The notes under the pieces: model-generated
Database searches by the model: none
What the model was told of the DNA's origin: nothing
What the model saw: only the letters and a program-made list of their open reading frames with translations
Assembly: GCA_910587815.1 (NCBI GenBank)
Contig: CAJUNK010000013.1
Location: forward strand, 11,481-75,480
Source: Candidatus Gastranaerophilales bacterium
Lineage (GTDB): Bacteria > Cyanobacteriota > Vampirovibrionia > Gastranaerophilales > Gastranaerophilaceae
DNA: 64,000 nucleotides
Direction: 5' to 3'
Translations under genes and position numbers: made by a program
Shown: in pieces, positions 1,434 to 34,198 of the stretch
Numbering within the stretch: position 1 is the first letter of the stretch
Layout of the letters: every line of letters starts with the position of its first letter

Positions 1434-2081
1434 ATGAAAATTTTAGATTTTATAAAAGAACATGTTAGTTTTAAATTTCATTTTGTAAGTGTTTTAGCGC
1501 TTGTTATTCTTCTTTTGATACCTGCTATGCTGGCCTTTTTGCCGCAGGACTGGGGCTTTGAAAACGGTTTATTGGAAGATTTTCAAATGCTTGTTTTATT
1601 TTGGATATTAGCTATGTGTGTTTATGCAAAAAATAATAAAAGAATTTTTAAGTATGCAGCATTTGCACTTTTAATTATAATTTTAAGAGAGATAAACCTT
1701 GGCAGGACAATACTTTTCCCTATTCCTGGTGAAGTTGGTAAATTTTACCCTTGGAGCTATGTAAATGAGCAAATGGGCTTTCCAATAGGTAAATGCGTAC
1801 ATTTTGTGTATGGTGCATATATTGCACTTATTGCAATTTTATTTATCATAAAAGGAATTTTCAAAGATGGGTTTAATTTAGTTTTTAAAACAAAACTACC
1901 ATTTTGGAATTTAATTTTTATGGGCATAGCGTCTTTTTGCGGAGCTATAGCTGAAAAGGCTACAAATAATAATTTCATATTTGAAGAGGGATTTGAATTA
2001 TTGTTTTATGTGGCGCTTGCTGGTGTAATTTATCTTTATACAATGGATGACAGGTATAAAATAGAAGAAAAAGCAGAATAG
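1434..2081 (+). CDS. multi-pass membrane protein, unknown function
   Basis: 215-aa ORF with several hydrophobic helices. No recognisable catalytic motif. Confidence 0.6.
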   Translation: MKILDFIKEHVSFKFHFVSVLALVILLLIPAMLAFLPQDWGFENGLLEDFQMLVLFWILAMCVYAKNNKRIFKYAAFALLIIILREINLGRTILFPIPGEVGKFYPWSYVNEQMGFPIGKCVHFVYGAYIALIAILFIIKGIFKDGFNLVFKTKLPFWNLIFMGIASFCGAIAEKATNNNFIFEEGFELLFYVALAGVIYLYTMDDRYKIEEKAE

Positions 2082-2086
2082 ATTAT

Positions 2087-2614
2087 CTAATTTGATTTTT
2101 GTCTTTTGTTTGCAACAATGTTTTTTAGGGTAATTTTTTCTTCTGTTTTACTTTGGTTTTGGATTTTTAGTGCGTAATCTTCTATTTTTTTAATGAAATG
2201 TGCAGGATTTCCAGCCCAAACTTCACCCGGCGGGACATTTTTTGTAACAACAGAACCCGCACCTATTACTGAATTATTGCCAATTGTGACATTTGGCATT
2301 ATGATTGATTTGCAGCCTATGAAACAATTGTTTCCAATTTTAATTTTTCCAAATGTTGAAATTTCTACATCTTTAATTAAATCTTTGCAGGCAAAATGAC
2401 CGCCATCATGGGTTAAAAATGTTACATCAAAGGATATTTTGGTATTGTCGCCAATTTCAATTAAATATGGTTCTGAACCAAAATTTGGCCAAAGATATGG
2501 AAAATTATGAATTGTAATTATACTAACATTTTTACCTAATTTTACCCCTAAAGATTTTGCATATTCTATGGGGTTTTTAGGTTGATTTTTAAATAACTTA
2601 GAGAATATTTTCAT
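2087..2614 (-). CDS. hexapeptide-repeat (left-handed beta-helix) O-acetyltransferase
   Basis: IGNNCFIGCKSIIMPNVTIGNNSVIGAGSVVTKNVPPGEVWAGNPA is a typical LbH acetyltransferase C-terminus. Same strand as the polysaccharide locus and directly downstream of it before the phage inserted. Confidence 0.8.
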   Translation of the reverse strand: MKIFSKLFKNQPKNPIEYAKSLGVKLGKNVSIITIHNFPYLWPNFGSEPYLIEIGDNTKISFDVTFLTHDGGHFACKDLIKDVEISTFGKIKIGNNCFIGCKSIIMPNVTIGNNSVIGAGSVVTKNVPPGEVWAGNPAHFIKKIEDYALKIQNQSKTEEKITLKNIVANKRQKSN

Positions 2615-2684
2615 TAGGCTGCTCTTTTCTTTTGCATTGATGATATTGAGTTAAAATTAAGCAGCCATTTGCGAGCTATATTTA

Positions 2685-2701
2685 CTCTCTCTCTCTCTCT
2701 C
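2685..2701. repeat. (CT)8.5 dinucleotide microsatellite
   Basis: ctctctctctctctctc read directly. Lies inside the severed gene tail, where it encodes ERERE. Confidence 0.95.
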
Positions 2702-2810
2702 GGTTGCGCTGTTTGTATATACTGTGTTTAAGCTTTCAAAAGTATATGATTCCATAAATTCCCAGGGAAATTTCAGTACTTCTTTTTTATGTCCTAATTT
2801 GGTATACAGT

Positions 2811-2815
2811 GTTTT
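2811..2815. repeat. target-site duplication GTTTT (left copy)
   Basis: Identical pentamer immediately outside both prophage termini (2811-2815 and 34199-34203). Confidence 0.8.
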
Positions 2816-2872
2816 TGTAACGCGTCAGGAGGTTTGAGAAAAAAGTTGCAGGGAGTTTGAGAATTTTTTCAA
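2816..2872. repeat. late-end terminal inverted repeat with two adjacent end repeats (putative transposase-binding sites)
   Basis: TGTAACGCGTCA-GGAGGTTTGAGAA (2828-2840) and GGGAGTTTGAGAATTTTTT (2851-2869). A weaker third copy, AGTTTGAAGTTTTTTT, is at 2935-2950. Confidence 0.7.
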
Positions 2873-2951
2873 TTTCAAATTATTTATTTGCCTGGTTAGT
2901 ATATATTTTGTATATCAAATTATTTTTTAATTAAAGTTTGAAGTTTTTTTG

Positions 2952-2988
2952 AAAATAAAAGGCAAAAACCTTTATTTGGCTTTTGCCT
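2952..2988 (-). terminator. rho-independent terminator after the methylase gene
   Basis: On the minus strand: AGGCAAAAGCC-loop-GGTTTTTGCCT (one mismatch) followed by TTTTATTTT. Confidence 0.6.
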
Positions 2989-3007
2989 AAACATCAACAC
3001 AAAAAAA

Positions 3008-3760
3008 CTAATAATTCTTAATTAAAAGTTCCTTGTATTCTCTGCCTTTCGGGCAACAACCATTTATTCCCTTAAGCCTTGAAACCTCAATAATATAAAA
3101 GCCCTTATAAAGCTTTCTGATTGATTCTGAATCATCATAAGATAACAAGAATTTTCCTTTAATATTCTTTAGTGTTTCAGCCAGTTTTTCATGTTCAAAG
3201 TCCTTTGTAGAGCAAACCTCGTAACCTTCGCCCTTTGAATATGGTGGGTCAAGATAAAAGAAATTTTGTCCGTTATCATAGGTTTGAATTAAATCAAGAG
3301 CATTCTTATTCTCTATATTAACCTTATCAAGCCTTTTTGAAATCTCCATAACTCTCTCTATTATGCCCCCTGCAGATTTAACTCTGACAGCATATGTTGT
3401 TCCTTTTGCACCAAAAGAATAATTAATAACATACAAAAACTGTGCAGCTTTTTGAATATCCGTAATGCCATCAAAGTTAAGCTGTTGTTCAAATTGTGTT
3501 CTGCTTGATAACATATAGCACATTTGACGTGCTAATTCACACGGATGATACTTAACGACGTTGAAAAGGTTTACAAGCCTGTTATCAAGGTCGTTATAGA
3601 TTTCTAATTCCGCCCATCGTTCTTTATAAAATAATACCCAGCCCCCGCCACCAAAGGGTTCAATATATCCTTCAATATCTTTAGGGATTAATTCAGCGAT
3701 TTTCTTTCTTAAAAGACGTTTCCCGCCAATCCAAGAAATTAAATATTTATATTTATTCAT
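3008..3760 (-). CDS. N6-adenine DNA methyltransferase, D12/Dam class
   Basis: N-terminal WIGGKRLL and EPFGGGG (AdoMet binding) plus DPPY catalytic motif (FFYLDPPYSKGEGY). Last gene before the phage end, the position mom occupies in Mu. Confidence 0.85.
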   Translation of the reverse strand: MNKYKYLISWIGGKRLLRKKIAELIPKDIEGYIEPFGGGGWVLFYKERWAELEIYNDLDNRLVNLFNVVKYHPCELARQMCYMLSSRTQFEQQLNFDGITDIQKAAQFLYVINYSFGAKGTTYAVRVKSAGGIIERVMEISKRLDKVNIENKNALDLIQTYDNGQNFFYLDPPYSKGEGYEVCSTKDFEHEKLAETLKNIKGKFLLSYDDSESIRKLYKGFYIIEVSRLKGINGCCPKGREYKELLIKNY

Positions 3761-3784
3761 AATTCAGCTACCTTTCTTAATTTT

Positions 3785-3793
3785 TGATATGAT
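3785..3793 (+). promoter_or_regulatory. candidate extended -10 promoter element TGaTATGAT
   Basis: TG-n-TATGAT read directly. It would start a + strand transcript near 3800, exactly where the GC-rich island begins. No good -35. Confidence 0.3.
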
Positions 3794-3800
3794 TTTTATG

Positions 3801-3970
3801 TGGGGAGCGGATTTTGGCGGGGCGTGGCAGGCGAAGCCGAACGCTATCTGTGAACAGCCTGTTGAAGGCTGTGAACCCGCAATAATCCAAGACGGCTATG
3901 GTACTATAGCTATTCCCATAGTAGTTGCCGCTGTTATGGGAACTTGGGGCGAAAGCCCCTTGCCTGCTTC
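3801..3970 (+). ncRNA. candidate structured RNA (GC-rich, hairpin-dense island); strand tentative
   Basis: 38/60 G+C in 3801-3860 inside AT-rich DNA. Hairpins: ACAGCC-7-GGCTGT (3854-3872), GCTAT-6-ATAGC (3895-3910), CCCATA-14-TATGGG (3915-3940), GGGGC-GAAA-GCCCC (3946-3959; GNRA loop only on the + strand). The 89-aa track ORF here has no RBS and an implausible composition. Confidence 0.35.
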
Positions 3971-4068
3971 ACTTTTAAGTATCAATGAATGCAAATACAG
4001 CACAGTATATATATTCAATTTTCAATGTTCAATAAAAAGTAATTTAAACCCGCATTAATTGATGTTTA

Positions 4069-4089
4069 AAACCCTGTTAATACGGGTTT
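4069..4089. terminator. bidirectional terminator-like hairpin AAACCC-9 nt-GGGTTT
   Basis: A second AAACCC at 4046-4051 can pair with the same GGGTTT. U-rich sequence follows on both strands. Confidence 0.3.
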
Positions 4090-4140
4090 GATTATTAAAT
4101 TGTTAAATATCAAATATGATAAATGTCAATATGCAATGAA

Positions 4141-4305
4141 TTATCGTTTAGCTGATATCAAACATTCAGTGAAGAATATGAGTATAATTCCATTTATACC
4201 TCCAATACAAAGTGCAATATTTGATTGGGTAAAACAAAATACAAATATTGCAATTATGCAGAATAGAAAATTAATGGAATAACATATCCAAAAACTTTTA
4301 TTCAT
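4141..4305 (-). CDS. 54-aa two-helix hydrophobic protein (holin/lysis accessory, or type I toxin-like)
   Basis: Below the track's apparent size limit (smallest listed ORF is 60 aa). ATG 4305-4303 sits 10 nt after the amidase stop, preceded by AAAGGA. Translation: MNKSFWICYSINFLFCIIAIFVFCFTQSNIALCIGGINGIILIFFTECLISAKR. Confidence 0.5.
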   Translation of the reverse strand: MNKSFWICYSINFLFCIIAIFVFCFTQSNIALCIGGINGIILIFFTECLISAKR

Positions 4306-4315
4306 TCCTTTTCAC

Positions 4316-4852
4316 CTATAACCTTTCTAAATACCACTGCACCTTCCCTCGGATATAATCCCCCACTCCATGGGCTGCAAGGTTTGGTTCATATGGAATA
4401 AAATTAATATCAGGCTTTCCTTTTGATTCTGTCTTTGGATTTTGTATACCAAATTCATAATGAGTTAATACAGTTATTGGAGATATTACTATTGCATATT
4501 TTTTACATAGTTCAGCACATAGTTTAAACATTTTTTCAAACTGAATCTTTTGTAATGGGTATTTACCTTGATTGGATGGAGATTTAAAACCTGCATTACC
4601 ACATAAGGCTATACCTATACTTCCTGTATTACCTCCTCCTGTATGTGCTGCATATTTACCATCATAACAGTTTAGATTATCTTCGGGTTTACAGATTCCA
4701 TTTTTGACATTAGCTGCTCTGTGCTGCTTATCATACTCTATCAGATAGTGATAATGTGCTTTTTCACCTTCATTTGGGGTGTATGTGCCAGCCGTCCAAT
4801 GCAGTATTATTCTTTTCATTTTTCTTAAAGTCCTTTCTGTGCTTTTATCCAA
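4316..4852 (-). CDS. endolysin, N-acetylmuramoyl-L-alanine amidase (Amidase_2/PGRP type)
   Basis: ILHWTAG...AHYHYLIEYD...AAHTGGGNTGSIGIALCGN resembles T7-lysozyme-type zinc amidases. Confidence 0.8.
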   Translation of the reverse strand: MDKSTERTLRKMKRIILHWTAGTYTPNEGEKAHYHYLIEYDKQHRAANVKNGICKPEDNLNCYDGKYAAHTGGGNTGSIGIALCGNAGFKSPSNQGKYPLQKIQFEKMFKLCAELCKKYAIVISPITVLTHYEFGIQNPKTESKGKPDINFIPYEPNLAAHGVGDYIRGKVQWYLERL

Positions 4853-5132
4853 TGTTTGGCATTACATAATTTTTATTTATTCTGTAATCAGCACATTTTT
4901 CTATGGCTTTTTCAATAAGCCCATCTGCAAGCTTTATAAGGCTTTCGCGAAAGAATGGAATCAATGGTTTTAGATAAATTGGAAGCTTTGATAGTAAAAA
5001 ATCTATAGCCATTTCCTTTTTTACGGCGCCTGTACCCTCACCTAATAAATCTTCAGCATACCTTATTGCTTTCTGTACTAAGTTTTTAAAACATTGATTT
5101 GCTTTTTTGATAATAATTTCTTTAAATTTCAT
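4845..5132 (-). CDS. small helical protein upstream of the endolysin (LL-H-holin-like region, no clear TM)
   Basis: EGTGAVKKEMAIDFLLSKLP resembles the conserved soluble part of LL-H-family holins. Overlaps the amidase start by 8 nt. Confidence 0.4.
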   Translation of the reverse strand: MKFKEIIIKKANQCFKNLVQKAIRYAEDLLGEGTGAVKKEMAIDFLLSKLPIYLKPLIPFFRESLIKLADGLIEKAIEKCADYRINKNYVMPNIG

Positions 5133-5172
5133 ACTTCTTAAATCCTTTCTATTTTTATATTAAAATTAAGTT

Positions 5173-5364
5173 ATGTTGGAAGTTTTTAAATACGGCAAAA
5201 AAGTTGATATACCTTGTTTTATATGTGATGCACCCGCTAATTTTGATATTCATATAACATCGCATAATGGCGCGTTTACAAACATTAATATTTGTGGAGA
5301 ATGCCTTAAAAAGCTAAAACAAGAATTTGAAAACTTTGAAATCCCGGCAAAGATTAAACTTTAA
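5173..5364 (+). CDS. possible zinc-ribbon protein (CxxC-22-CxxC), opposite strand to the late operon
   Basis: 63-aa ORF filling an otherwise 228-nt gap: CFICDAPANFDIHITSHNGAFTNINICGEC. No convincing RBS. Confidence 0.35.
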   Translation: MLEVFKYGKKVDIPCFICDAPANFDIHITSHNGAFTNINICGECLKKLKQEFENFEIPAKIKL

Positions 5365-6974: not shown

Positions 6975-8648
6975 TTACTTATACCTAGTTTTAACCCTCA
7001 CCTTTATTGAAGGGGGTTGAACGGTTGAAGAATTGTCATAGATTGGGTTACAGTTACTTGCATCAAAATATGCCCTGTAACATGCACCCCCGCCTCCTGA
7101 AACATTTGCATGGCTGCCATCCAATGTTTTTAGAAAGGCACCGGTTAAATAATCAGCCCTTGAACCATAAGTTTGGTTAAGCGTACCTGTAATATTTGGC
7201 AACCCTGCCTCAATATATCCAAAATCAGATGCACCCCATATTGTTTTATTTCTAAAATCAGGCAATACAAAATCATCAGAATTTTCAGGGGTTCCATAGG
7301 TATCACCATAAACTTCATATAATGTTGAGTATGTAGTTTTAGATATTTGCGCCCCTTCAAGCCATATTTCATTATCATTTAGGGTGTTTGACAAAGTAAT
7401 AATTGGCATACCTATTTCAAACCCTACATCTGGTGAACTGCTTTGGGATAAATTATACGAATTTGTCACTAATTTACCCCCCCCGATTGGTGCGGTTTCA
7501 GAATTTTCATCTCCTTCGGCGAGTGTGGCAGACACAGTATAAACCCCTGCCTCTACCTCATCTGTTATTTGCCAAGCTAAACCTGGGTCATCTTCTAATG
7601 TTGCACCATATTCTTCTAAACAATAAGTACAATATGGTGCAACAGATAAATCTTGCCATAAATCATATAGGTTAGGGTCTTTAGGCGGGTTCTTCTGTCT
7701 GTAAGTTTTACCACCCTCAACATCAAAGAATACAATTTCACCATTTCTGTTTGCAACCCTTAAACTATATTCCCCAGGTTCATAATCAGTTACATCCAAT
7801 GTTAAATCTTCTGTGATTGTAACAGTTTTCCCGTTTCCATCTGTATATATGGCAGGTGCTTTCAGGGTGATTATTCTTTTTGAAATTGTTACAGGTTCTT
7901 CATCTTCAGCTCCTGGGGAACTATCGTTCCACGCCGCCTGCGTAGTGCTTGTGCCATCCTCATCGGATGTCACCGCACCGGCTCCGCTTTCTTCAGACGG
8001 CACAGTTTCCGTCACTGTACTTAATTGAAGCAGTGCTGCATTCCCGTTTTCATCCACTGCACCGGAATTAAAGCAAAAGGGAACAAAGGTTGATGGTAAA
8101 TGTTCTAACGGCACCTTAGCTTCATCATCCAAAGGCGCATATCCGCCTGCCTTGCCTTTTTCTTCAAGTAGCTGATACTCTTCCAATACCTGCCTTGTAA
8201 CCAAATTGCCTGAATCATCAATTATAATTGTGTTTATAATCATATCAGACAATTCAATTTGAATTTCAATATTCAAAGTTTTATTGCTTGAGCTATCCGC
8301 CTTGGTTTTGAAGGTTTCAGGATACTTTGCAACCGCCCAAAGTTTACCTTCAGGACTGAAAAGCCCTACTTCCCTTATAGTGTAATCCCCTTCGCTTGGC
8401 GGAATTTGAAAACAAAAATATAAGTAACCTGAAGCATTACCCTTTGGCGGTTTTTTACCTTGTGCAAAGATATTACCTTCGTATTTCTGGTTTTTTAAAG
8501 CGGTCTGGGTTTTTTCGGGCTCATAATAATTGCCGTTACTATCGCCCACCGCCATTTTAGCAGGTTCAAAACTCCGGTTATTTGCAACGCAATCTAAGAC
8601 TTCAATCATACCTTCTGTGGTTAATACTGCATAAAATTGTTCTGTCAT
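6975..8648 (-). CDS. tail fibre protein
   Basis: N-terminus FYAVLTTEGMIEVLD...MAVGDSNGNYYEPEKTQTALKNQKY matches the P2 gpH / Mu S conserved N-domain. C-terminal VLPDFRNKTIWG is a tail-collar-like motif. Confidence 0.85.
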   Translation of the reverse strand: MTEQFYAVLTTEGMIEVLDCVANNRSFEPAKMAVGDSNGNYYEPEKTQTALKNQKYEGNIFAQGKKPPKGNASGYLYFCFQIPPSEGDYTIREVGLFSPEGKLWAVAKYPETFKTKADSSSNKTLNIEIQIELSDMIINTIIIDDSGNLVTRQVLEEYQLLEEKGKAGGYAPLDDEAKVPLEHLPSTFVPFCFNSGAVDENGNAALLQLSTVTETVPSEESGAGAVTSDEDGTSTTQAAWNDSSPGAEDEEPVTISKRIITLKAPAIYTDGNGKTVTITEDLTLDVTDYEPGEYSLRVANRNGEIVFFDVEGGKTYRQKNPPKDPNLYDLWQDLSVAPYCTYCLEEYGATLEDDPGLAWQITDEVEAGVYTVSATLAEGDENSETAPIGGGKLVTNSYNLSQSSSPDVGFEIGMPIITLSNTLNDNEIWLEGAQISKTTYSTLYEVYGDTYGTPENSDDFVLPDFRNKTIWGASDFGYIEAGLPNITGTLNQTYGSRADYLTGAFLKTLDGSHANVSGGGGACYRAYFDASNCNPIYDNSSTVQPPSIKVRVKTRYK

Positions 8649-9202
8649 ATTTGCACTTCCTTTGTCTTTATAACAGTGGTTTCAAGGGTTGAAACCCTTG
8701 CACCGATATAAACTTTTGCCTTTGAACATAAAAAATAATTAATTACATCTAAAATCCTGGTTAAAGGCTTATAATTGTTAATCATTTCTTTAATTTCAGC
8801 CTCAAAGTTATCATCTAACCCCCGATCATAAATATTTAGAAATTCCACCCTAAAATGCCCGATACGTCCGTCATATTCGTCCCATTCTTTGATATCAGCT
8901 TCAATGTTTAAAGTCTGCAAAGCTTTTTTAAGTGCCGGGATACTGCCTTTTTCTGCGTGCAGCTGAGGTGAATTTTTGATTAAATTTTGTTTTTGTTCCT
9001 TTGTTTTTGCTAAATTCCATCCTTCATATCCCATAATATGGTTTTCCTTGCCCAAAATTGGAAGCAAGGTTTCGTTGACATTTTCAACCGGGCAAAGTAA
9101 AAGTTTTTTAAGGTCAATTTTAAAAGCCTCTTTCATACAACTTTCAAGAGCTAAATTATGCTTATCCTGCAACACTTGAGGCAGCAATGAATTATTACTC
9201 AT
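8645..9202 (-). CDS. baseplate/tail protein (P2 gpI-like)
   Basis: N-terminal SLLPQVLQDKHNLALE resembles the gpI LLP signature. Position between gpJ-like and fibre genes. Confidence 0.65.
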   Translation of the reverse strand: MSNNSLLPQVLQDKHNLALESCMKEAFKIDLKKLLLCPVENVNETLLPILGKENHIMGYEGWNLAKTKEQKQNLIKNSPQLHAEKGSIPALKKALQTLNIEADIKEWDEYDGRIGHFRVEFLNIYDRGLDDNFEAEIKEMINNYKPLTRILDVINYFLCSKAKVYIGARVSTLETTVIKTKEVQI

Positions 9203-10226
9203 CTGTCACCCTTTCATAAGTTATATTGCCGATTGTACCCTTATATGCCGTATCAATTTTAGCCAGCATGTTTGAAGTCGGCTTTGTAACTTTAAAATCA
9301 AAAACGCCGTCAATAGAATTTATGTAAGACACTATATGATTTTTAACAACGGATTTTTTTAAAAACAGATTAACACCGCTTAAATACTTATTTAAAAGCT
9401 CATTAACATTCTTTTTAACAGTTTCTTCATCCGCATTTTTTCTAAGATAAACTTTGCCGTTTATTGCAAATTCTTCAATCTTTGCAAACTGTGGCAATGG
9501 GTAATCACAAAGCGGCTTAACGGGTTTTAAGGCATCTGAAACTTTATCCAAAAGCCCTTCAACTTCTGTGCCATCTTGCGTTAAAATATGCAAAAATGTT
9601 CTATATGGGTGCGGCACGGTGACTTTAATCTTTGAACCCGCTTCAAGCGCCTGATTTAAAGTGATTTCAACCTCACCCTCTTTATAATTGCAAACGATAT
9701 TAAAGAGAGCCGTTGTTATTTCATTCGTTGTCATAACGGTTTCAGTTTCACCGATTTTAATTTTTATATCATCTTCAGGCACTTCGCACTGCACATCTTT
9801 AATTAAAGAATCAACAGATTTTGTGAAATAAATATATGCAAGCTCAGGACCCGCAACGGAAAACCCTTCAGGGGATAATAAAATCCTTTGAATATAGTCT
9901 TTATCTTCCTCGTCTTCAAGGCGCGGACAGTTTTTTTGATTGCCTAAAAAGTCTAGAATTGGTGCCCTTGAGTGTTCTACAAGGTTAAGTTTACAAGCAT
10001 CATTAACTTGGGCTTTAACAAGGTTTGCATAATAAACCATTAACTCAATTAAAATCCTTGTATCATGGGCAATCTGCACCTTTGTATCGGTGTCTTTTTC
10101 AAACTTTTCAATTAAATGTGCCTCATCTGCTTTTGGGTCAATTTTTATAAATTCAAGGGCTGCGTGAGCCGGTGTGAAAGGGGAAGGTGTTGAGCCTTGC
10201 CCTGAAACACTACGTTCTGACATCAT
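9195..10226 (-). CDS. baseplate J-like protein (Mu gp47 / P2 gpJ)
   Basis: Size and position between the gpW-like and gpI-like genes. Confidence 0.7.
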   Translation of the reverse strand: MMSERSVSGQGSTPSPFTPAHAALEFIKIDPKADEAHLIEKFEKDTDTKVQIAHDTRILIELMVYYANLVKAQVNDACKLNLVEHSRAPILDFLGNQKNCPRLEDEEDKDYIQRILLSPEGFSVAGPELAYIYFTKSVDSLIKDVQCEVPEDDIKIKIGETETVMTTNEITTALFNIVCNYKEGEVEITLNQALEAGSKIKVTVPHPYRTFLHILTQDGTEVEGLLDKVSDALKPVKPLCDYPLPQFAKIEEFAINGKVYLRKNADEETVKKNVNELLNKYLSGVNLFLKKSVVKNHIVSYINSIDGVFDFKVTKPTSNMLAKIDTAYKGTIGNITYERVTDE

Positions 10227-15045: not shown

Positions 15046-15073
15046 TTGCTAAAAATAAAGGGGCAAAAGCCCC
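15046..15073 (-). terminator. terminator-like hairpin inside the late operon, 10 nt upstream of the tape measure start
   Basis: Minus strand GGGGC-UUUU-GCCCC (15073-15060) followed by UUUAUUUUU. Confidence 0.4.
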
Positions 15074-15104
15074 TAATATCAAGGAAAATTTATGAGATTA
15101 AATT

Positions 15105-15185
15105 GCGCGAACCGGTGTTCCGTGAGGCGGTGCGTGCGGGTTGCGATGAGCAAGCCGCAAAGCACTACGCCAGTGAACACTACGG
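15105..15185. repeat. GC-rich intergenic element, copy A
   Basis: 38/60 G+C in 15121-15180. Shares GGCGG(T/G)GCGTG, AAGCCG and GTGAACA with 3817-3857, and GGTGCGTG, TGCGAT, GAGC and AAGCACTACGC with 26491-26552. Confidence 0.5.
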
Positions 15186-15601
15186 CTTATGTTTTTCAGG
15201 TTCCAGGTTAAGTTTTTTCCATAAAGAATGAGCTTCATTGAACCAAAAAATGATTTCATCAAATGTCATTTCATAGATTTCTTTTTTTGAGAAATGGAGG
15301 AAATGGGCTATAAAAACCATCATCTCAGTATCAGGTATTACTTTCCCGGGTTTGCACTGTCCCAGGCTTCTTCAAGAGTTATAATATCTCGTGCACTGTA
15401 ATTCAAAACTTCTTCAGCAGGCATTTTTTCACCATCAAATGTGGCAATTTCGGCAATTAAATATATTACAGCCCCGAAGCCGCCTGAAGCTTTTCTTGCC
15501 TTCATTAATGCGTGCCCGTTGCTTTTTGCCGGGTCAAATTCTACCTTAACACCGTTTGAAAGTGTTAATTTTACCAAGTTTTCAGTTTGTGCTTTTGTCA
15601 T
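15180..15601 (-). CDS. tail assembly chaperone, -1 frameshift fusion product (gpE+E' / G-T type), 140 aa
   Basis: After slipping at GGGAAAG the -1 frame reads VIPDTEMMVFIAHFLHFSKKEIYEMTFDEIIFWFNEAHSLWKKLNLEPEKHKP to TAG at 15182-15180. FSKKEIYEMTFDEIIFW resembles the P2 GpE-family extension. Confidence 0.65.
15338..15601 (-). CDS. tail assembly chaperone, zero-frame product (87 aa)
   Basis: ORF between the tail tube and tape measure genes, ending ...ANPGK at the slippery site. Confidence 0.75.
   Translation of the reverse strand: MTKAQTENLVKLTLSNGVKVEFDPAKSNGHALMKARKASGGFGAVIYLIAEIATFDGEKMPAEEVLNYSARDIITLEEAWDSANPGK
15341..15347 (-). promoter_or_regulatory. programmed -1 ribosomal frameshift slippery heptamer G GGA AAG
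   Basis: Plus strand ctttccc = minus strand GGGAAAG, in the X XXY YYZ phase of the 87-aa ORF and immediately before its stop codon. Confidence 0.7.
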
Positions 15602-26490: not shown

Positions 26491-26552
26491 GAGGTGCGTG
26501 AGCCGGTGCGATTTTTTTAAGGCGATGAGCCTTGAAAAATAAGCACTACGCA
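26491..26552. repeat. GC-rich intergenic element, copy B
   Basis: GAGGTGCGTGAGCCGGTGCGAT...GGCGATGAGCC...AAGCACTACGCAAGGAG, immediately upstream of the 109-aa gene RBS. Confidence 0.5.
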
Positions 26553-26562
26553 AGGAGATAAA

Positions 26563-27458: not shown

Positions 27459-27485
27459 AAATGGGCAGAATTTCTCTGCCCATTT
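27459..27485. terminator. bidirectional terminator between convergent genes
   Basis: Perfect 11-bp stem AAATGGGCAGA-ATTTC-TCTGCCCATTT. Confidence 0.6.
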
Positions 27486-28030
27486 TACCTGATTTCTATA
27501 TCTGAAACCTTCCAAATATTACCTTCTTTTTCAAATGTCCTAATATAACAAGGTTTGTCATTATCGCTGCAAAAACTTTGCTTGATTTTATTCTTTGATA
27601 TCTTTTCAACTTTTAATGTTTTAGCGCTAATGGGTTTATCGGTAAATGTAAGATAGAAAATTTTAAGTTTAGAAGTTTTTGCCACCTTCTCATCTCTTGT
27701 TTCGTATTCTTTAATTAGTTCTTTTTTATATGTTAATGGCAAAGTTTCCTTCAAGTTTGCAAGTAAATTAGCTTTTGCAGCAATTAAAAACGGGTTGCCT
27801 TCATCATCCATTTCACTGTCAGCTCTCATCAAAGCATATTCAACCATTTTATTAATATTATGAAATTCAAGTGCAGTTTTAGAATCAAGATTTTTATTTG
27901 CCATTGTAAGCATATAAGCAGAATATCTCGGTGATGTTCTAAAATCTATATATAGAATGAAAATTGCAATAATAAAAAATAAACCAATTCCTACCGATAT
28001 AAATAAAGTAATTTTCACACCTTTATTCAT
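27485..28030 (-). CDS. membrane-anchored protein co-transcribed with the repressor (lysogeny-expressed accessory gene)
   Basis: 181 aa with an N-terminal TM helix (ITLFISVGIGLFFIIAIFILYI). Starts 14 nt after the repressor stop, with an AAAGG RBS. Confidence 0.6.
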   Translation of the reverse strand: MNKGVKITLFISVGIGLFFIIAIFILYIDFRTSPRYSAYMLTMANKNLDSKTALEFHNINKMVEYALMRADSEMDDEGNPFLIAAKANLLANLKETLPLTYKKELIKEYETRDEKVAKTSKLKIFYLTFTDKPISAKTLKVEKISKNKIKQSFCSDNDKPCYIRTFEKEGNIWKVSDIEIR

Positions 28031-28044
28031 TTTGTAACCTTTCT

Positions 28045-34104: not shown

Positions 34105-34198
34105 AAAAAATTCTCAAACCTCAAAACACCCCTAAAACTCCTATTGTATAAGCAATTTACCCCATTTTAAAAATTCTCAAACTTCCAGTCTCTTCACA
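34105..34198. repeat. early-end terminal inverted repeat with spaced end repeats
   Basis: AAAAAATTCTCAAACCTC (34105-34122) and AAAAATTCTCAAACTTCC-AGTCTCTTCACA (34169-34198). These are the reverse complements of the late-end repeats. Confidence 0.7.

Follow-up and report, generated by a model that had tools for sequence, protein, structure and literature searches.

What are the G+C-rich islands that interrupt the AT-rich DNA of a Mu-like prophage in a Gastranaerophilales genome: sites at which the phage acts on its own DNA, or sequences that have arrived from elsewhere? The prophage lies in a 64,000-nt stretch of contig C13 of the source genome (G000; 2.13 Mb, 33% G+C), the whole of which was analysed and is called the window below. 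A sequence-only reading of it had described three related elements (copy A, copy B and the 3801-3970 island), all between genes and all in one absolute orientation, and had favoured either a DNA-level site (bound by a phage protein, or serving recombination or packaging) or a small mobile G+C-rich element. The sequences that it quoted are indeed found where it placed them, and when 60-nt windows were scanned for G+C, copy A ranked first and the 3801 island third. The same scan also exposed two blocks that had been missed, at 10158-10217 (plus strand) and 7928-7987 (minus strand). We refer to the module of copies A and B as M1, to the module of the 3801 island as M6, and to the minus-strand insertion at 7908-7988 as copy 7928; in the two missed blocks M1 spans 10160-10218 and 7937-7989.

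Local alignment against shuffled controls bears out the kinship of A and B (z=4.8, equalled by 1 of 2000 shuffles) and connects the newly found blocks to them (B against 10158, z=7.8; A against the reverse complement of 7928, z=7.3), but not the kinship of the third element. Against the M1 copies the 3801 island scores z between -0.6 and 1.2 (1.2 against A and -0.1 against B), and the sequence blocks that it had been said to share with A and B are at the level of chance. Copies A and B were also recovered by two covariance models, R1 and R2, the latter built from 24 copies of other genomes only as a guard against circularity. On the window R2 finds exactly the four phage M1 copies (E from 1e-11 to 9e-7, the next hit having E=7); neither model matches the 3801-3970 island, which is hence not a member of M1. 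The statements that all elements share one orientation and that all are intergenic fail because two further M1 copies had been overlooked: four of the five elements are on the plus strand, which is a trend, two copies lie within open reading frames, and copy A overlaps the end of the frameshifted E' frame. The argument that had been built on a common strand rested on that incomplete census. Coordinates and model scores are given in Table 1.

Table 1. Elements of the window and neighbouring phage features (positions in nt; R1 and R2 scores in bits).
Feature	Position	Strand	R1	R2	Description
M1 copy A	15104-15185	+	53.9	48.1 (E 2e-9)	82-nt insertion
M1 copy B	26496-26559	+	60.2	55.6 (E 4e-11)	
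M1 copy 10158	10158-10222	+	62.9	58	antisense to Baseplate_J-like gene 9195..10226(-)
M1 copy 7928	7908-7988	-	40.8	36.8	sense within tail-fibre gene 6975..8648(-)
Module M6	3806-3893	+			88 nt, three-way junction
Island remainder	3894-3965	+			hairpins GCTATGGTACTATAGC, TTCCCATAG...TATGGGAA, GGGGCGAAAGCCCC; conserved in phage L144, which lacks M6
Hairpin GGGGCAAAAGCCCC	15061-15074				upstream of tape-measure ATG; kept in G012 phage without copy A

Genome G012 carries a collinear Mu-like prophage, about 78% identical in nucleotide sequence, in which the genes run in the same order and include the 109-aa gene; all four M1 copies are absent from its corresponding sites. Copy A proves to be compound: the apical loop of one M1, with arms GAACCGGTGTTC ... 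GTGAACACTACGG, contains a second M1 (15118-15173). The empty site in the G012 phage reads GGAATTAAAT|CTGTTCA. E' (15098-15340, minus strand), which extends the tail assembly chaperone in the -1 frame, is conserved with G012 and uses the same frame there; in the window it ends as ...EKHKP* inside copy A, which supplies its TAG stop codon (CCGTAG on the minus strand). Copy B splits an old ribosome-binding site, AAAGAGGT, from the ATG of the 109-aa gene with a net gain of 63 nt, where the G012 phage has AAAGAGGT-CTTA-ATG, and a new AAGGAG is present at its 3' edge. Copy 10158 lies in frame immediately past the ATG of a gene whose product matches Pfam Baseplate_J; it contributes the extra residues MSERSVSGQGSTPSPFTPAHAA and is missing from the G012 and G001 orthologues (net +48 and +54 nt). 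Copy 7928 is made up of M1 and the next module, a hairpin GGAAC GATA GTTCC. This insertion of 81 nt adds 27 codons (SGAGAVTSDEDGTSTTQAAWNDSSPGA), in frame, to a linker of the tail fibre, and it is cleanly absent from the near-identical phage of genome G011 (contig C42) as well as from the G012 phage.

The polymorphism runs in both directions. The G011 phage, 96-99% identical to that of the window, has a private 60-nt M1 in frame in its sheath gene (adding SRSAYGSSTSEAPKTPAHAAR), another in frame in the N-terminal part of its Mu-type portal gene (adding KAQAGADLGKRGVFLKGPTT) and a private G+C-rich element of about 110 nt upstream of the portal ATG; the G012 phage has one M1 of its own between tail genes, directly ahead of the sheath gene start (at about 17600 in window coordinates). 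In all, presence or absence between collinear flanks was seen at all five window sites and at four sites private to sister phages, and also in the host gene rmlD (below). From this pattern among relatives we infer that each phage copy is an insertion. Eight junctions were examined and showed neither a consistent target-site duplication nor a target motif, and a classical MITE was rejected on the first of these grounds and on the form of the element, which is one folded hairpin or junction and is not bounded by terminal inverted repeats. The GGGGC-NAAA-GCCCC hairpins noted earlier beside two of the elements do exist, yet they belong to the phage and not to the repeat, because sister phages that lack the elements keep them. 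The hairpin at 15061-15074 is likewise independent of copy A, since the G012 phage has the hairpin without the copy. Two other differences between the phages were noticed. Homology at the megablast level between G011 (C42:34240-36034) and the window ends within the tail-fibre gene at the M1 site (7989-7992), and the downstream part of the tail fibre is more diverged in the G011 phage, so that this break in homology may be a recombination junction. At 27485-28037 a 181-aa minus-strand gene is exchanged like a cassette for unrelated DNA in G011 (552 against 408 nt).

Insertions of M1 within genes follow a regular pattern. In-frame, stop-free copies are found in unrelated genes, namely those for baseplate J, the tail fibre, the sheath and the portal (the last two in G011) and rmlD, and in each the open reading frame is intact. 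The four sense copies (tail fibre, G011 portal and two in rmlD) are all read in the frame GCC-GGT-G, and in all four the TGA of the element has been replaced, by GGA, CAA, TCA and TCA; the GGA is that of the tail fibre, where the frame was read directly. The two antisense copies also use one common frame (..RS....TPAHAA). The rmlD gene of the host (C1:242301-243344) contains two tandem in-frame M1 copies amounting to about 62 residues, which split its RmlD_sub_bind Pfam match in two; in none of the 12 other genomes of the genus does rmlD have them.

The twenty M1 copies that we aligned, from this genome and other assemblies, have conserved arms (5' GCGTGAGCCGGTGYG and 3' ARCACTACGG) on either side of a variable hairpin, and the module ranges in length from 33 to about 65 nt. 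The 5' arm pairs with 3' RCAC-TA-CGGC to make a foot of two helices, GCCG/CGGC and GTGY/RCAC, with a bulged TA. In the alignment 91% of cells are paired as against 82% in shuffles, none of 500 shuffles being as high or matching the observed covariation, and controls in which the structure was slid fall to 23-59% paired. The foot pair 16-55 (Y-R) is CG in 11 sequences and UA in 8, pair 10-63 is flipped from C-G to G-C in two copies, and double changes occur at all four apical pairs; the apical stem varies in nearly every copy and is still paired. Of 53 distinct copies, 21 have GATGA as the apical loop and 4 have GTTGA, and the minimal 33-nt M1 is the foot with a short loop (for example GCGTGAGCCGGTGC TTAAAA GCACTACGC). 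In 42 of the 53 copies the fold of the plus strand is more stable than that of its reverse complement (mean -21.5 against -17.9 kcal/mol; Wilcoxon p=1.6e-7), and the structure of M1 therefore matters on one strand, in a single-stranded form. Conservation of the foot and of the G(A/T)TGA loop could also be due to some role in the host or the phage apart from selfish spread.

The third element belongs with the other two by another route. M6 folds into a long-range stem, GGATTTTG(G)CG...CGCAATAATCC, and two further arms, one in which GCGT...ACGC encloses GGC GAA GCC and one a hairpin ACAGCCT GTTGA AGGCTGT, the loop of which is GTTGA or GATGA among copies. By direct reading, its stems show compensatory changes (GGATT/AATCC to GAATT/AATTC; ACAGCC/GGCTGT to ACAGGT/ACCTGT). 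In the sister phage IMGVR_UViG_3300006217_000456 (L144 in Table 1) precisely 3806-3893 are missing from an otherwise preserved island; that conserved remainder does not belong to the mobile family and may be a phage-intrinsic feature. The M6 of the island is 91-94% identical to C10:73774-73830 and C15:2734-2786 of the same genome, and copies 91-95% identical to it lie at unrelated loci in G000 and related genomes. In the related genomes M6 is the commonest module, and there its neighbours, which it adjoins in one orientation or the other, include gltX, nusG, pyr genes and Gly-rich genes. The island is tied to copies A and B only in that M6 shares composite elements of about 330 nt with M1 elsewhere in the genome.

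These composites point to a family that extends well beyond the phage. The pattern GAGCCGGTGYG-N10-40-AARCACTACG occurs at 6 sites in the genome (its reversed control at none), and R1 finds 18 copies in G000 at E<=1e-3. Copies by R1 are present in 10 of the 12 other genomes of the genus, with 2-11 in each, and there are almost none in 28 genomes from other genera of the family and order; the matches found outside are Gastranaerophilales or Melainabacteria metagenome-assembled genomes (MAGs). Chromosomal M1 is often the first module of a ~330-nt composite (M1...M6; for example C10:73537-73877), and about ten further chromosomal loci have shorter mosaics of the composite modules. Many composites lie between the stop codon of a Gly_rich_2 (PF21722) paralogue and a conserved terminator hairpin, a junction that can be seen empty at C11:48000 and filled at C15:2650-3010. 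Among viruses, CATJOM010000042.1 (iMGMC-526, 36,034 nt) holds a near-identical phage, a scan of IMG/VR with the pattern returned only the same phage and chance matches in G+C-rich viruses, and the tail region had no nucleotide-level match in the phage collection searched. In the literature on repeats of Melainabacteria and Gastranaerophilales we found no description of such elements.

M1 is enriched in prophage DNA. Four of the 18 G000 copies lie in the ~31.5-kb Mu-like prophage as against 0.27 expected, an excess of about 15-fold (Poisson about 2e-4) that takes a right end at 34198, supported by comparison with G011, and a provisional left end; in the window, the 30 kb that belong to the host are free of copies. 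Two to three more are found in a second prophage-like region (C12:29-39 kb). In G003, four copies fall within 12 kb of a myovirus prophage (portal, protease, sheath, baseplate hub), and in G002 a copy abuts a sheath gene. The C12:29000-39000 region encodes a DUF3799 nuclease, YopX, an S24 repressor and a RecT-like protein.

Taken with the empty sites in sister phages and the dispersal outside the phage, which strongly support the second of the two original suggestions, these observations make it probable that the elements are dispersed, modular, G+C-rich, hairpin-forming mobile repeats of Gastranaerophilales and their phages and not sites of phage control. The first suggestion, that the elements bind a phage protein (Mor, Ner or the 109-aa NUMOD-like protein) or are signals for phage packaging or recombination, can appeal to the islands of high G+C within AT-rich phage DNA, to the four of five elements on one strand and to the position of copy B directly upstream of the NUMOD-like gene. 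Yet all four M1 sites are empty in the G012 phage, which shares the gene order and has the 109-aa gene too; element positions differ even between phages that are 96-99% identical; and the family is abundant outside this phage, in chromosomal DNA of the host, including a housekeeping gene, and in prophages of unrelated type, so that we consider such a role extremely unlikely. A false lead is thereby removed: these are not regulatory, packaging or binding sites of the phage.

A functional structured RNA, whether a cis-acting hairpin (a boxB/nut-like pentaloop or an mRNA stabiliser) or a small RNA gene that regulates the phage, would account for the strong covariation in M1 and for the strand asymmetry, with its G-U pairs on one strand. 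The boxB hairpins of lambda and P22 provide a model in which a pentaloop takes a GNRA-like fold with one base flipped out, and by analogy the G(A/U)UGA loop could fold in this way. In the phages examined, however, M1 is oriented about 5 times sense and about 6 times antisense to transcription, and this mixture argues against a cis-RNA role. Copies inside reading frames are translated, the elements are dispensable in sister phages, M6 adjoins unrelated genes with no Dam gene near, and Rfam at its gathering threshold gave no match in the window or at three chromosomal composite loci (a permissive search of the island returned only noise at E<=10). We therefore regard an RNA function as quite unlikely. 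Hammerhead, twister and pistol ribozymes, CRISPR-repeat mimics and the 5' end of a group II intron (GTGCG) were set aside by eye, since none of their core motifs is present and GATGA is here the loop of a hairpin. The repeats might instead be sites of a host single-strand-specific nuclease or recombinase (compare SsnA) that modulates recombination, transformation or the processing of phage DNA, and be spread by recombination. Oriented hairpins with non-palindromic conserved flanks, the single-strand asymmetry, the mosaic arrays by surface-protein-like Gly-rich gene families (which resemble Neisseria NIMEs), the lack of any target duplication among the junctions seen and a stand-alone 95-aa GIY-YIG gene in all 12 other genomes of the genus are consistent with such a role; but most genomes of the order without M1 have that gene as well, and in G000 (C4:92399-92683) it has no repeats flanking it. 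This explanation, too, we judge unlikely.

The elements are thus best read as a REP- or RPE-like selfish mobile repeat whose active form is single-stranded. Its modules can nest, join into the ~330-nt composites or stand alone, and they insert without obvious target duplication into both intergenic and coding DNA; within genes, the copies that survive are those in frame and free of stops, translated as short loops rich in Ser, Thr, Gly, Ala and Pro. A putative enzyme that acts on one strand, either of DNA exposed in replication or of RNA, would recognise the foot (with its bulged TA) and the loop G(A/T)TGA, as single-stranded nucleic acid is recognised in the REP/RAYT, IS200/IS605 and Ssn/NTS systems. 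Replicating or recombining phage DNA may then be favoured both as target and as vehicle. More specifically, M1 and M6 are possibly the substrates of a single-strand-specific enzyme (HUH/RAYT-like, GIY-YIG or phage-borne) that prefers replicating phage DNA, with temperate phages carrying the repeats between strains of Melainabacteria, a proposal that we put forward tentatively and with rather low confidence. If it is true, in-frame landings in sheath, portal, baseplate and tail-fibre genes would be a recurrent natural source of new loops on the virion surface.

The RAYT and GIY-YIG candidates that we examined did not link the family to a transposase or other mobilising enzyme. G000 has one RAYT gene (C5:17118-17558, L086; NF047646, 128.6 bits), and within the genus RAYT is found only in G000, G002, G004, G006 and G010. 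Of the genomes without RAYT, G003, G007 and G011 are rich in M1, G010 has RAYT and no M1, and no M1 was found beside the G000 gene; RAYT was rejected as the mobiliser on both counts. A hairpin by the RAYT gene (GTTGGGCA..TGCCCAAC) was considered as a repeat and discarded, as it is not dispersed. The RAYT gene adjoins a tRNA gene with two partial duplications of the tRNA 3' end, which suggests that it came on a small integrative element. As for the GIY-YIG protein, its sequence probably resembles the YhbQ/UPF0213 group rather than the Ssn clade cd10448.

Among known repeats, the closest in behaviour are the RPEs of Rickettsia, described in the summary of Ogata et al. (2000) given in PMC10969869 as small, non-autonomous palindromic repeats that lie in frame in unrelated coding genes and are translated. 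So far as that summary goes, RPEs and M1 have in common the lack of a known transposase, in-frame insertion into coding sequence that adds peptide segments, and occurrence between genes as well; at 33-90 nt, M1 and M6 are shorter than RPEs (~100-150), G+C-rich in an AT-rich genome, modular and self-nesting, and they belong to another phylum. M1 differs further in its strong enrichment in prophages, including their sheath, portal, baseplate and tail-fibre genes. The likeness is one of behaviour, which in M1 is joined to a modular build like that of REP/BIME, BOX and NIME repeats, and homology in sequence to RPE-1 to RPE-10 is not to be expected from their size and composition. With REPs, REPINs and BIMEs M1 shares short imperfect hairpins, a conserved foot, mosaic clusters, the lack of target duplication and single-strand asymmetry, and the reverse complement of M1 begins CCGTAGTG, with GTAG as in REPs. 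REPs, however, are essentially extragenic whereas M1 is often intragenic and in phages, and the RAYT distribution described above sets M1 apart from the REP/RAYT system.

The NTS/dRS3 hairpins of Neisseria are cut by the GIY-YIG nuclease SsnA, the paradigm of the Ssn family (PMC11893778). Like M1, they are oriented hairpin repeats of about 30 nt with conserved non-palindromic flanks, in hundreds to tens of copies, and NIMEs, like the M1 composites, form mosaic arrays near surface-protein gene families. Both systems involve action on single-stranded DNA, which for M1 is our interpretation. M1 has no sequence similarity to NTS, the G000 GIY-YIG gene is not bordered by repeats, and in-frame coding insertion and enrichment in phages are features of M1 not described for NTS. 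BOX elements of Streptococcus pneumoniae consist of a 5' module, a variable number of internal modules and a 3' module, and like M1 are modular, insert into one another and form stable secondary structures (PMC10969869). BOX elements are intergenic, and they differ from M1 in modules, host and size. Yeast mitochondrial GC clusters are also G+C-rich palindromic mini-elements of an AT-rich genome, polymorphic between strains and occasionally in frame (var1); unlike M1 they are organellar, and there is no relation in sequence.

The family thus joins a known class of small selfish palindromic repeats, in which its prophage enrichment and its in-frame insertions into virion genes are notable: selfish DNA inside genes, in the manner of Rickettsia, is now seen in another phylum and in genes for structural proteins of a virus. 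Filled and empty sites in phages that are 96-99% identical offer a tractable system for asking how hairpin repeats without a protein of their own move, and the same natural system can show how structural proteins tolerate 16-27 extra residues. For annotation, such elements account for G+C-rich islands, unusual N-terminal extensions and inserts of low complexity in MAGs of Melainabacteria and in the phages of these bacteria.

Several observations were made at other loci in the course of this work. Several tandem M1 copies occur in a MAG labelled 'uncultured Gammaproteobacteria' (CAYUWO01 contigs L055, L065, L070 and L085; 34-37% G+C), which is either a mislabelled or mis-binned relative of Melainabacteria or a sign that M1 has spread more widely. 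A diversity-generating retroelement (DGR) template or variable repeat was rejected as an identity for the element, which has no match at the reverse transcriptase (RT) loci and shows no adenine-specific variation; the G000 loci C12:~1656-5315 (L008) and C15:49254-52769 (L007) hold a DGR core (an Avd-like protein of 129 aa and a 405-aa RT) and a stand-alone 379-aa RT. Gly_rich_2 (PF21722) is a large paralogous family with at least 10 loci in G000 (for example C11:48000, C2:163650, C3:115150, C8:7850 and C6:105660), the genes of which end at a conserved motif, GATGAACAACTTTTC, followed by a covarying terminator hairpin GGGCACC...GGTGCCC, and this junction is a hotspot for the composite elements. 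At C10:72048-73300 (L001:1-1250), adjoining a Gly_rich_2 gene, is a tandem series of small Cys-rich open reading frames that end in ...TLAFSV(R) and whose products are possibly lectin-fold or DGR-target-like. Inside these frames, at C10:72044, 72356 and 72968, are weak foot hairpins of 33 nt that are like those of M1.
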